From IMG/VR virus record IMGVR_UViG_2698536559_000019: DNA of 10,350 bases. One strand, 5' to 3'. This DNA is from a virus. Taxonomy: Duplodnaviria; Heunggongvirae; Uroviricota; Caudoviricetes. Shown piece by piece: positions 1-3,000 of this stretch (the first letter of the stretch is position 1; each line of letters starts with the position of its first letter). A program made the position numbers.

Positions 1-3000
1 TTTATCTGTATCTTTATCTGTATCTTTATCTGTCGTGACTCGTCGTGACATGTGCGTGACATTTCGTGACGCGCCGTGACAATCGCCATTTTGTTCCCGC
101 TTTCTTTCCCTCTCTCGCTGCGCCCTCTTGCGCTCTGCAGGAGATTTTGCGGTTTGCGAAATATTGCCGTTGTCCTCTTTCAGCACCTGGCGTTTTTCCC
201 ATCCAGTGATTAAATCACCATCAAGTACCCGCCCCTGCATCGTCTGTAAAATTGAATCAATTACCTCTTCTGTCACGTCGAGCGCACTTGCCAAATCTTC
301 TGTCGTGACATCAATGTGACCTCGCGTGACATTTCGTGACGCGCTCACCAGGAGGTGGATATACACAGCCATCACTGTTGCGATTGGCTGTCCTGACACC
401 CTGGAAATTGTTCGCCACTTAGGATCGTTTGGCATGTCATGCCATAATCTGAGCCAGGCGTTAGCCATACTCACCTCTTCTGATACCGAATCTTTTTACT
501 CACGAGTTGCCGGAAGCGATTCGATATGGCTATTGTCAGTCAATGTACTGCCACAGAATTTCCTGCCGGGCCACCACGGTTCATCTGATTGAAACCGGCG
601 ATTGCCACTGCGACAAAATCATCAGCGTCTCTCACCAGTCGCTCCCGCGTCTCCACCAGCTCCCGAAAATAAGCTGAACTGTGGCTGCGCATTCGGGCCA
701 CCAGCAGAGGCGGCATTGCTTTTTCGATAGCTGGTAACAACACCTGAATTTTTTTAACCGCATCAGGGGTGTCTTTCTCCACCCAGCGGAAAATTTTCTG
801 AGTATTGCGAGCCAGGGCTTCCGGATGGCTGTCGTCATACAGTTCCGGGAACGTCATTCCCAGCTCGAAATACGCTTTGGTAATTTTCGCAGCAGGTACT
901 TTTTCGCCGTCCGGATGTGCCCAGGCATTCATTGCCATGCGGATGTGTTCATGCTTGATTTTCATGAATCAACTCCATCAGATAAGCATGCACTACAATC
1001 ACCTTCAGCATGAACTACATGCGTTTGCCCCAAACGAATGCCGCTAGCATACTCAGGCCAAATAAGCTCCCAATCATGGGGTCGTAGCTCCGCCCTACTT
1101 ACTTGGCCTTCCGTCGCAGATTCGATCATAAGGGCGCGGGTTGGAGATATAGCTGCTCGTCCGGACGCCATTTGCGATAAGTAAGATGGCGATACACCAA
1201 GTCTGGCCGCGAATTTCTTAGCATCACCAACCCTCAATGATTTAATAAACTCTTTTAATGTCATACCTTCCTCGGTTTAGTGTTTTCTTGCGAGTTTAGT
1301 GTTTAATAAACCATTAAGTCAAGTATTTGCTTGTTTAGTGATTACTAAAGATAATTACCACATGCAGAAAAAAGAAATTCGCCGTTTACGTCTCAAGGAG
1401 TGGTTTAAAGATAAAACTCTGCCACCCAAAGAGAAGAGCTACCTATCTCAACTAATGAGTGGGAGGGCCTCGTTTGGAGAAAAGGCTGCCAGAAGAATAG
1501 AGCAAACATACGGGATGCCGGAAGGGTATCTGGATGCGGAATACGCAGAACAACCGGAGATTTCTCCACCACATGCAGGGTTAACGTCTAATCAACTGGA
1601 ATTATTGCAGATTTTTTCAGCCTTCCCTGAGGATGAGCAACGCCAGATAATCAGCGAGTTAAAGCAGAAAAAAGAATCAATGGAAGATCTCATAGCGAGA
1701 TGGATTGCGGCGCAAAAATGCCGCCGCGCCTAAGTTATAAAACCGGAGGAAACATGAATAGAGCCCTTTCACCAATGGTTTCTGAATTTGAAACCATTGA
1801 ACAAGAAAACAGTTACAACGAATGGCTGCGTGCGAAAGTAGCAACGAGCCTTGCAGATCCGCGCCCAGCAATTCCCCATGACGAAGTTGAGCGCAGAATG
1901 GCAGAACGCTTTGCTAGAATGCGCAAGGAACGGAGCAAGCAGTAAAATGTTACCCGTGTTATGGCTTGAAAGCGCAGATACCGACCTAGATGATATAACC
2001 AGTTATATTGCTCGTTTCGACATAGATGCGGCTGAACGCTTATGGCAGCGATTAAGGGGTTGTGTGCTGCCGTTATCCGAACATCCGTATTTATACCCAC
2101 CAAGCGACAGAGTACCTGGCTTGCGTGAGATTGTGGCCCACCCTAACTATATAATTCTATACCGCGTAACAACATCAAGCGTTGAAGTAGTAAACGTGAT
2201 CCACGCAAGACGCCAGTTTCCCTAACTTTAACTACCAATAGAAACATAACAACCGCAACGACTTTACCAAAAGCGTTGTGTTTGTTACGCCCCACGGTTT
2301 AGTTTTTGCTTGACTTAAGTTTAATGTTTATTAAACTAAAAATACCAACCCACCCCGCCCCACAGAACGCCGGGCAATACTTCGAGTTACCAGGCAGTGG
2401 TCAGGGGGTAAGTAGCCAGCCCGAGGCGTAAGAACATGACGGCAGGGTTCAACTTTAATAACTATGCAGCAGGTTTTTGTTCCGCTACCCCGGCGTTAAG
2501 GGGAAACAGAGGGTTTCTCAGTGGGCGAAGTCAAACATCAGAATGGAAGGCATCCCGGGATCGGCAAAGAAGCGGCAATGACGCTTTATATTGACATCAG
2601 CGCCATTGCCGGACAGGTAAGAGTTATCAGAGCGGTAACTAAGCGGTATGCGCTTTTACTTCAGAAAGTCTCTGGTGAGTGCACCGAAGATATTGTCAAC
2701 GATTTCGTCATCGAACTGCGAGGACTCATCTTCAGTTACAAGGTGACCACAATTTTTGCAGATGGCTCCCGCGAAACTGTCAGAGCCATGCGGTTTAAAG
2801 GATGTGTCAAAGACTTCGCCGCCACATTCTGGGCAAGAAAACTTGATTGTATTCATAACCAATTTCCTCTCGAGTAACAGCTCCCTCAGAGGATACCACC
2901 TCGCCTGACGTGGTTAAAAGCAGGCAACGCTAACCACAAGGAGCCGACATGCAGAAACGAGAACCCGTCATCATCGCGCCAGACTATACCGATGATGAAC

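Follow-up and report, generated by a model that had tools for sequence, protein, structure and literature searches.

A CP-933P/Sp12-type immunity region with a PaaR2 repressor and a ParE2 toxin-antitoxin pair in a lambdoid Escherichia coli prophage

Positions 540–2340 of the 10,350-bp viral DNA analysed here (the window) constitute, with a probability that we put at about 95%, the lysis-lysogeny switch (immunity) region of a lambdoid E. coli prophage of the CP-933P/Sp12 type. Comparison to EDL933 showed 1265–2340 to be an allele of the immunity region that CP-933P/Sp12 carries in E. coli O157:H7, with the same gene content and order as paaR2-paaA2-parE2 and ydaS-ydaT of CP-933P, and nothing within the window contradicted this explanation. 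The locus is real but ordinary: the regulatory logic of PaaR2/YdaS/YdaT was dissected in 2021 (Jurenas et al., PMC8630535), so that it matters little as a discovery. The published work, on a near-identical allele, showed that the operators are bound, located the promoters and the leaderless start, and demonstrated that PR, PRM and PL are repressed, that the switch is bistable and that plasmids are stabilised; our own analysis covers the identity to the studied allele, the motif positions and the conservation of the repressor/operator layout in phages that lack a toxin-antitoxin (TA) pair. The features are as follows.

540–965, minus strand: ydaT, CII-like activator (POU-type HTH tetramer); PF06254 2e-9, phrog_163 1.5e-44
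955–972: YdaT operator OM, TTGATT-N6-AATCAA; exact match at the ydaS/ydaT junction (PRE region)
962–1264, minus strand: ydaS, Cro analogue; PF15943 3.9e-12, HTH_3, weak P22_Cro match, phrog_35
1265–1361: OR-type control region, 97 bp; 96/97 identical to EDL933
1275, 1294 and 1333, plus strand: GTTTAGT half-sites in OR (motif search)
1294–1311 and 1333–1350: inverted repeats in OR (motif search)
−35 at 1322–1317, −10 at 1298–1293, minus strand: PR-like promoter, TTGACT/18/TAAACT (promoter scan)
−35 TTGCTT at 1327–1332, −10 GATAAT at 1350–1355, plus strand: PRM (from the sequence)
1362–1733, plus strand: paaR2, CI-analogue repressor; PDB 7NKV/8C3K/8C3L "Phage repressor protein CI" 1.3e-39, phrog_5736 4e-39
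1754–1945, plus strand: paaA2, antitoxin; PF21217 1e-19, PDB 3ZBE 1.5e-36
1947–2225, plus strand: parE2, ParE-family toxin; PF05016 1.9e-16, PDB 5CW7 7e-60
2295–2340, plus strand: PL/OL-type promoter-operator; −35 TTGACT at 2310–2315, spacer 16, −10 TAAACT at 2332–2337
2297, plus strand: GTTTAGT at PL (motif search)
2320–2335: PL inverted repeat TTTAAT-GTTT-ATTAAA, perfectly palindromic and extending from the PL spacer into the −10
4058–4109, plus strand: DicF sRNA; Rfam RF00039, 71.5 bits against a gathering score of 48
4284–4472, plus strand: dicB; PF05358 DicB 2.2e-37

The window allele differs little from that of EDL933 in the parts studied experimentally. PaaR2 is identical at 121/123 residues (the differences are E66G and I67G), and its residues 1–66 are identical to PDB 7NKV/8C3K; ParE2 is identical, while YdaS and PaaA2 each differ at one residue. 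The only difference in OR lies at 1287 (C vs T), outside the conserved half-sites, and identity is complete over 2295–2345, the PL core. Primers of Jurenas et al. mapped onto the window with 0–1 mismatch, such that their EMSA probe FL1/FL2 corresponds to 1265–1361 and their PL933P probe/reporter fragment to 2226–2343. With the operators and the PaaR2 DNA-binding domain unchanged, we infer that the experimental results obtained with the EDL933 allele carry over to the window; the present prophage copy is probably expressed. In YdaT, 22 residues differ from the EDL933 counterpart; the 20 listed positions span 14–137, with most of them beyond residue 97. The flanking DNA is mosaic, and among complete genomes the best match is 98.7% over 81%. 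The window is thus not from EDL933 and represents a different variant of the prophage. The whole paaR2 block is carried by ~11% of complete E. coli genomes. Solved structures exist for components of the region.

The initial annotation had placed a PaaR-like regulator where lambda has cI, divergent from a cro/YdaS-like gene, and had proposed that it doubles as the prophage immunity repressor. Our gene map agrees with this placement, as do two published accounts, in which PaaR2 replaces CI (Prolic-Kalinsek et al. 2023, PMC9986795) and is the functional CI equivalent in the cI position, with ydaST as its primary repression target (PMC8630535); the proposed repressor role is thus borne out on a near-identical allele. 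PaaR2 is not a canonical CI, because it lacks the RecA-dependent autocleavage domain. A Pfam scan of the protein gave no family match, Peptidase_S24 included, and the peptidase motif was reported absent and mitomycin C gave no response (PMC8630535). Its C-terminal part is weakly DicA-like (NF007257 1e-6, 28.6 bits against a cut-off of 101, over the C-terminal 49 residues only), a score below the family cut-off that leaves PaaR2 outside the DicA family. Scanning the larger ORFs of the window with Pfam and PHROGs yielded YdaS, YdaT, PaaR2, excisionase, integrase, exonuclease, DicB, DUF1482 and unknowns, and no second repressor-like gene was seen among them; the window does not cover the remainder of the prophage.

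Between the divergently transcribed repressor and cro genes lies a common operator of several sites, overlapping each of their promoters, and PL, downstream of the operon that the repressor gene heads, has a second operator set. The PR-like and PL-like promoters have identical −35 and −10 hexamers, and the OR and PL regions form a mutual inverted repeat of 24 nt at 79%. The expectation of a PL promoter of the TTGACT/TAAACT type was correct: PL933P was reported to have the same −35/−10 as PR933P and three operators, and to be repressed ~100-fold by PaaR2 and by YdaS (PMC8630535). The predicted palindrome in its spacer is likewise there, and perfect, although it reaches into the −10. The three palindromes proposed for the divergent region held up in part: TTTAGT-N4-ACTAAA is perfect at 1334–1349 and has one mismatch at 1295–1310, but 1275 is a half-site only, and the count of three differs from the published description of four 18-bp inverted repeats (consensus GTTTAGTAA) with three overlapping pseudosymmetric operators (PMC8630535). 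In the same study, DNase I footprints of PaaR2 and YdaS lay on repeated GTTTAGT-type inverted repeats, PaaR2 protection extended over ~78 of the 97 intergenic bp, and YdaS bound this same region. That YdaS competes with PaaR2 for these sites had not been foreseen in the initial annotation.

These control regions are 67–68% A+T, and it could be argued that the TTTAGT/ACTAAA palindromes arose by chance in A+T-rich intergenic DNA and that the promoter hexamers are coincidental. Under a generous null, a first-order Markov model fitted to the same region, a perfect 6-N4-6 palindrome appeared in 723/20000 resamples of OR (3.6%) and 2283/20000 of PL (11%), and the promoter scan found 5 sites where 2.9 were expected; one promoter-like match, inside parE2 (1966–1994), was treated as chance. 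Since single palindromes are not rare under an A+T-matched null, the case rests on recurrence at both promoters, conservation across phages and the published footprints. GTTTAGT occurs four times in the 10,350 bp, always on the plus strand and always within OR or PL, whereas shuffles of the whole window gave a mean of 1.04 copies and reached four in 2/200. A 7-mer with at least three non-overlapping copies was found in 334/20000 resamples, and one that also recurred at PL in 48/20000, even with the null trained on the region. Moreover, the motif positions are conserved in a Klebsiella and a Burkholderia phage (below), and DNase I footprints and reporter assays have been published, the footprints already refuting a chance origin (PMC8630535), which we regard as scarcely credible.

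YdaT matches PDB 3C4R (3e-89) and 8BT1 (3.5e-80) as well as phrog_163, "CII-like transcriptional activator", and it has been described as the CII analogue (PMC8630535). The motif footprinted by YdaT, TTGATT-N6-AATCAA (PMC9986795), occurs once in the window where 0.08 would be expected by chance. A CII-type activator gene and its site at a PRE-like promoter are therefore both present; activation itself is taken from PMC8630535 and PMC9986795.

The repressor transcript had been predicted to be leaderless, as for lambda cI. The A of the paaR2 ATG (1362) is the 7th base after the −10 GATAAT and there is no Shine-Dalgarno sequence, a geometry that matches the prediction. In PMC8630535, 5′ RACE mapped the PRM933P start to the paaR2 ATG and N-terminal sequencing gave MQKKE, showing that the mRNA is leaderless; the allele used is identical to the window over 1288–1366.

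The gene layout of a three-component TA as defined by Hallez et al. (2010) is also present, with PaaR first, PaaA without a DNA-binding domain and the ParE toxin last. The genes lie on one strand, 20 nt separating paaR2 from paaA2 and 1 nt the paaA2 stop from the parE2 start, and paaR2 is co-transcribed with the ParE TA pair in CP-933P according to the literature. PaaA2 gave no HTH or RHH match in the Pfam scan. PaaR2 might alternatively be a dedicated TA regulator, in effect the DNA-binding part of an antitoxin that has split in two, within a mobile three-component TA whose host prophage keeps its true repressor elsewhere. The locus was first described as a three-component TA, as papers citing Hallez et al. 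(2010) relate, and among 593 complete E. coli genomes with paaR2 the whole block is found in 590. Escherichia phage Evi, which has the same immunity module (PaaR2 and ParE2 are both 100% identical to the window), carries another HTH_3 regulator outside it, in the nin region, and this regulator might conceivably act at these promoters too.

Two phages argue against such a TA-dedicated role. In Klebsiella phage 5 LV-2017, a PaaR2 homologue (44.6% identical) is encoded back to back with a YdaS-type cro and a CII-like gene; there is no TA, and a homologous PL lies ~110 bp past the repressor stop codon. In Burkholderia phage vB_E177, a PaaR2-like N-terminal domain (65% over 58 residues) is fused to Peptidase_S24 (2.2e-15), as in CI/LexA-type proteins, and this repressor too is divergent from a YdaS-type cro. 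ParE2 homologues were not found in either phage. Both keep the block "ACTAAACC..GTCAAGT.TTTGCTTGTTTA" and a −10-like hexamer 6–7 nt before the ATG, so that the leaderless geometry is conserved over this distance as well. These repressors resemble PaaR2 in the HTH domain, the YdaS-type cro and the operator/promoter/leaderless layout, and differ from the window in lacking the TA cassette and, for vB_E177, in carrying Peptidase_S24 where PaaR2 has its DicA-like C-terminal domain. In annotation, the Klebsiella repressor and the N-terminus of the vB_E177 CI-type repressor are blank; the "PAAR2" named in one paper on a Burkholderia prophage belongs to a T6SS PAAR cluster and is unrelated to PaaR2. 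Because PaaR2-type proteins occupy the cI position in these contexts, a regulator devoted to the TA is very unlikely; in addition, PaaR2 sites govern two promoters that do not serve the TA, PR (ydaS-ydaT) and PL, and ydaST is the primary target in the published data.

Returning to the immunity-region reading, the occurrence of the same layout in TA-less phages indicates that a phage repressor gene acquired paaA2-parE2 as a rexAB-like insertion behind it, and that the three genes are not a dedicated TA. The antitoxin and toxin lie at the rexAB position, as had been noted, and a published account has them replacing rexA/rexB (PMC9986795). As PaaA2-ParE2 has no DNA-binding antitoxin, its transcription depends on the phage switch. 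The suggested coupling of lysogeny control to toxin expression stands at the level of transcription, both bistable states transcribing the TA, but switching states does not activate ParE2, whose activity in a single-cell SOS reporter was equal between them (PMC8630535). Neutralisation of ParE2 toxicity by PaaA2 and post-segregational killing were reported for the EDL933 locus by Hallez et al. (2010), as cited in PMC8630535.

On the favoured reading the switch operates as follows. PaaR2 binds inverted repeats of the GTTTAGT type at two places, the 97-bp region from which the divergent PR also reads and PL, 0.95 kb downstream. Binding shuts off ydaS-ydaT, encoding the Cro and CII analogues, as well as the early genes of the leftward operon, whereas a low dose of PaaR2 activates the repressor's own promoter. 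The leaderless paaR2 transcript would begin at its own ATG from a weak PRM (TTGCTT-17-GATAAT). YdaS competes for the PaaR2 sites, making the switch bistable, and YdaT binds 955–972 and turns on a PRE-like promoter directed towards paaR2. The two-gene TA cassette is inserted between the repressor gene and PL, and addiction by post-segregational killing, its demonstrated activity, would stabilise the immunity region.

Lambda and the window have in common a divergent repressor/cro pair with a shared multipartite operator, a second operator set at PL, a repressor mRNA from PRM with leaderless geometry (shown to be leaderless for the published allele), accessory non-essential genes co-transcribed behind the repressor, and a CII-type activator with PRE inside or after cro. 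PaaR2, YdaS and YdaT, however, have no sequence homology to CI, Cro and CII; the S24 autocleavage domain is missing from PaaR2, YdaT forms a POU-type tetramer (PMC9986795), OR contains four inverted repeats (PMC8630535) where lambda has three operators, and the cargo is a ParE TA pair instead of RexAB. Downstream of PL, the leftward operon contains a ydfC-like gene, whose EDL933 counterpart PGAP names ydfC, and shares this gene, DicF and dicB with the Qin DicA/DicC switch of E. coli K-12 (dicB operon ydfABC-dicF-dicB). To judge from strand and order, DicF and dicB are probably cargo of the PaaR2-repressed leftward PL operon. The N-terminal DNA-binding domain of PaaR2 is not DicA-like, and Qin is not known to have a TA behind dicA. 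Jurenas et al. also placed paaR2 at the dicA position (PMC8630535).

The findings can be used for annotation: PGAP calls paaR2 a "hypothetical protein", and both Pfam and PGAP label YdaS and YdaT toxins. The comparative findings in TA-less phages are a small addition to published work; relatives without the TA, one of them bearing S24, share the operator layout and back the published view of the TA as a moron behind a phage repressor. Phage Evi is on a published list of coliphages isolated from infant faeces, and one tentative interpretation, to which we give well under even odds, is that a live temperate phage relies on PaaR2 as its functioning immunity repressor, in a lineage that exchanged an SOS-responsive C-terminus for an oligomerisation domain like that of DicA, with ParE2 as an addiction or Rex-like module shielding the immunity region from replacement. 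If so, induction would be uncoupled from SOS, leaving a purely bistable or antirepressor-driven switch, and PaaR2 would serve a live temperate phage, Evi, beyond cryptic remnants.

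The studied interval (1265-2340) and its left flank comprise five genes, with a 97-bp gap separating ydaS from paaR2:

540-965, minus strand: ydaT (Pfam YdaT_toxin; PDB 3C4R/8BT1)
962-1264, minus strand: ydaS (Pfam YdaS_toxin/HTH_3)
1362-1733, plus strand: paaR2, the regulator (residues 1-66, PDB 7NKV/8C3K)
1754-1945, plus strand: paaA2 (PF21217 PaaA2, 1e-19; PDB 3ZBE)
1947-2225, plus strand: parE2 (PF05016 ParE_toxin, 1.9e-16; PDB 5CW7, 7e-60)

All proteins of the region match solved structures from one published system in the PDB. PaaR2 matched no family in the Pfam search; over residues 1-66 it has the same sequence as PDB 7NKV/8C3K, an entry deposited under the name "Phage repressor protein CI", and its C-terminal 49 residues match the DicA model weakly, far under the cut-off of that model. 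The YdaS and YdaT families are still named toxins in Pfam, despite literature showing Cro- and CII-like regulators, and in PGAP the label for paaR2 is "hypothetical protein" and that for YdaT "toxin YdaT family protein".

A published study covers a locus matching the window (Jurenas et al. 2021, mBio, PMC8630535), and its primers map here with 0-1 mismatch, delimiting three of its fragments:

1265-1361: EMSA probe FL1/FL2
2226-2343: PL reporter fragment
937-1056: PRE fragment

We compared the window directly with the EDL933 chromosome at the DNA and protein level. The intergenic region is identical at 96 of 97 positions, the sole difference (1287) lying outside the half-sites, and 2295-2345 is identical throughout. 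ParE2 is the same protein, PaaA2 and YdaS differ by one residue each, PaaR2 by two, both in the linker, and YdaT by 22 of 141, mostly in its C-terminal part. By this near-identity the window holds an allelic form of the CP-933P/Sp12 immunity region within a mosaic prophage; the best complete-genome match reaches 98.7% over 81%. The ydaT allele diverges from EDL933, whereas the adjoining ydaS and OR region hardly differ from it, and YdaT matches PDB 3C4R better than 8BT1; the pattern suggests a recombination breakpoint inside ydaT.

The window of 10,350 bp holds four copies of the heptamer GTTTAGT, all on the plus strand, at 1275, 1294 and 1333 in the intergenic region and at 2297 (shuffle expectation, mean 1.04 per window). 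A motif search confirmed the palindromes where the initial annotation had placed them: TTTAGT-N4-ACTAAA matches perfectly at 1334-1349 and with a single mismatch at 1295-1310, and TTTAAT-GTTT-ATTAAA is perfect at 2320-2335, by PL. Consensus scanning found a PR-like promoter (TTGACT/18/TAAACT; minus strand, 1322..1293) directed into ydaS and a PL-like promoter with the same two hexamers and a 16-nt spacer (plus strand, 2310..2337), and the two regions are mutual inverted copies over 24 nt at 79%. The A+T content of both control regions is 67-68%, and single perfect palindromes are not rare there, arising in 3.6% and 11% of resamples from a region-trained Markov null, whereas a 7-mer with three non-overlapping copies that recurs at PL appeared in 48 of 20,000. 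The statistical case therefore lies in the recurrence and in no single palindrome. An exact TTGATT-N6-AATCAA inverted repeat at 955-972, its sole match in the window, overlies the ydaS stop/ydaT start overlap and corresponds to the YdaT operator OM at PRE933P, which was defined by that sequence (Prolic-Kalinsek et al. 2023, PMC9986795).

Within the 97-bp region of the reference locus, PaaR2 protects ~78 bp and YdaS ~65 bp; besides three overlapping pseudosymmetric operators, the region holds four inverted repeats of 18 bp at equal spacing (consensus GTTTAGTAA; PMC8630535). PaaR2 represses PR and PRM, as does YdaS, and at low levels activates PRM; PL933P, with the -35/-10 of PR933P and three operators, is repressed ~100-fold by either protein, and a PRE-like promoter situated between ydaS and ydaT is switched on by YdaT (PMC8630535). 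These results bear out the proposal that the toxin-antitoxin regulator doubles as immunity repressor. The geometry predicting a leaderless regulator mRNA likewise holds: GATAAT lies at 1350-1355, the paaR2 ATG opens with its A (1362) seven bases further on with no Shine-Dalgarno sequence between them, and in the reference locus 5' RACE put the PRM933P start at the translation start, with N-terminal sequencing (MQKKE) and intact mass confirming leaderless translation (PMC8630535). The assignment of PaaR2 to the cI position and the TA pair to that of rexA/rexB is also in print for the near-identical locus (PMC9986795).

The initial annotation went too far only in coupling lysogeny control to toxin expression. 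Transcriptional coupling holds; the reference locus is bistable, and ParE2 activity in an SOS reporter did not differ between the two states (PMC8630535). The whole locus stabilised a mini-F plasmid, and PaaR2 has no peptidase motif and showed no mitomycin C response (PMC8630535). The analysis thus confirms what was observed and supports how it was interpreted; the system is already known, the 2021 and 2023 studies of the reference locus containing every element of the interpretation.

The published CP-933P mechanism, carried over to this allele, best explains the immunity region; this copy would be expressed, and the PL transcript would include DicF and dicB from among these downstream features:

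4058-4109, plus strand: DicF sRNA (Rfam RF00039, 71.5 bits)
4284-4472, plus strand: dicB (PF05358, 2.2e-37)
4415-4660: DUF1482 gene, after dicB

DicF and dicB are encoded on the same strand as PL, ~1.7-2.1 kb downstream of it. The operon repressed by PaaR2 and YdaS probably carries Qin-type division inhibitors, DicF and dicB, and its closest analogue is the Qin DicA/DicC/dicB system.

At the left end, positions 1-81 hold tandem TTTATCTGTATC x2.8 and then a unit of ~10 bp containing CGTGAC, repeated about five times, and a second cluster of CGTGAC-like repeats was seen by eye at 300-345. All lie within the leftmost ORF (1-468, minus strand), which has no Pfam match and adjoins ydaT in the replication-gene (O-like) position; by analogy with lambda, they look like origin iterons within an initiator gene. 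The right end contains:

7520-8539: integrase
9343-9936, plus strand: EspF-repeat ORF beyond the integrase (PF04806, 1.9e-74, three repeats; 141-bp tandem repeat x2.4)
10081-10350, minus strand: prophage tail-fibre C-terminus, adjoining the EspF-repeat ORF

The EspF-repeat ORF presumably resembles TccP/EspFu-type effectors. It probably marks where a second, neighbouring prophage ends, and the junction has no tRNA, since ARAGORN found none anywhere in the window.

Among 5426 complete E. coli genomes, 593 carry paaR2, 633 the TA pair and 590 the whole block, so that paaR2 and the TA genes are almost always linked within this species. A PaaR2 tblastn search against phage genomes returned five records. 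Klebsiella phage 5 LV-2017 encodes a homologue of 118 aa (44.6% identity) that is not annotated. It is divergent from a YdaS-type cro and the gene of a "CII decision making protein", with replication genes downstream on one flank and exonuclease VIII on the opposite flank; within ~110 bp of the repressor stop comes a PL-like element, homologous to the window's own, with no TA genes between. In Burkholderia phage vB_E177, an ORF likewise divergent from a YdaS-type cro is 65% identical to PaaR2 over its first 58 residues and ends in a Peptidase_S24 domain (2.2e-15). ParE2 homologues were found in neither of these two phages in the phage genome search. The three aligned control regions (window, Klebsiella, Burkholderia) share a central block of an ACTAAAC half-site, the PR -35 (GTCAAG on the aligned strand), the PRM -35 (TTGCTT) and the GTTTA half-site that follows, and all three have a -10-like hexamer 6-7 nt upstream of the ATG. 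Because TA-less phages keep a PaaR2-type repressor and the control-region layout, the comparison supports PaaR2 as a genuine phage-repressor lineage with the TA genes as putative cargo; insertion of paaA2-parE2 into the immunity region was already proposed in the discussion of PMC8630535. The Klebsiella repressor gene (L002, that phage's record, 3501-3857) is not called in GenBank, and for the Burkholderia one (L003, 3501-4163) the CDS given there uses an internal start (locus 3768) that leaves out the N-terminal HTH; these calls plausibly reflect the lack of a ribosome-binding site at the true starts, which leaderless genes would be expected to show.

Escherichia phage Evi carries the same immunity region at 99.7% DNA identity, with PaaR2 and ParE2 100% identical, and is listed in one paper among coliphages from infant faecal samples. 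Outside that region, its nin region (6208-6972 of the phage record, L001) encodes a 254-aa HTH_3 regulator (1.2e-16) whose C-terminal part is weakly cupin-like; no other candidate for a further regulator was seen. Should Evi be viable as a temperate phage, PaaR2 would be the immunity repressor of a live phage while having no SOS-cleavable domain, a modest extension of published work.
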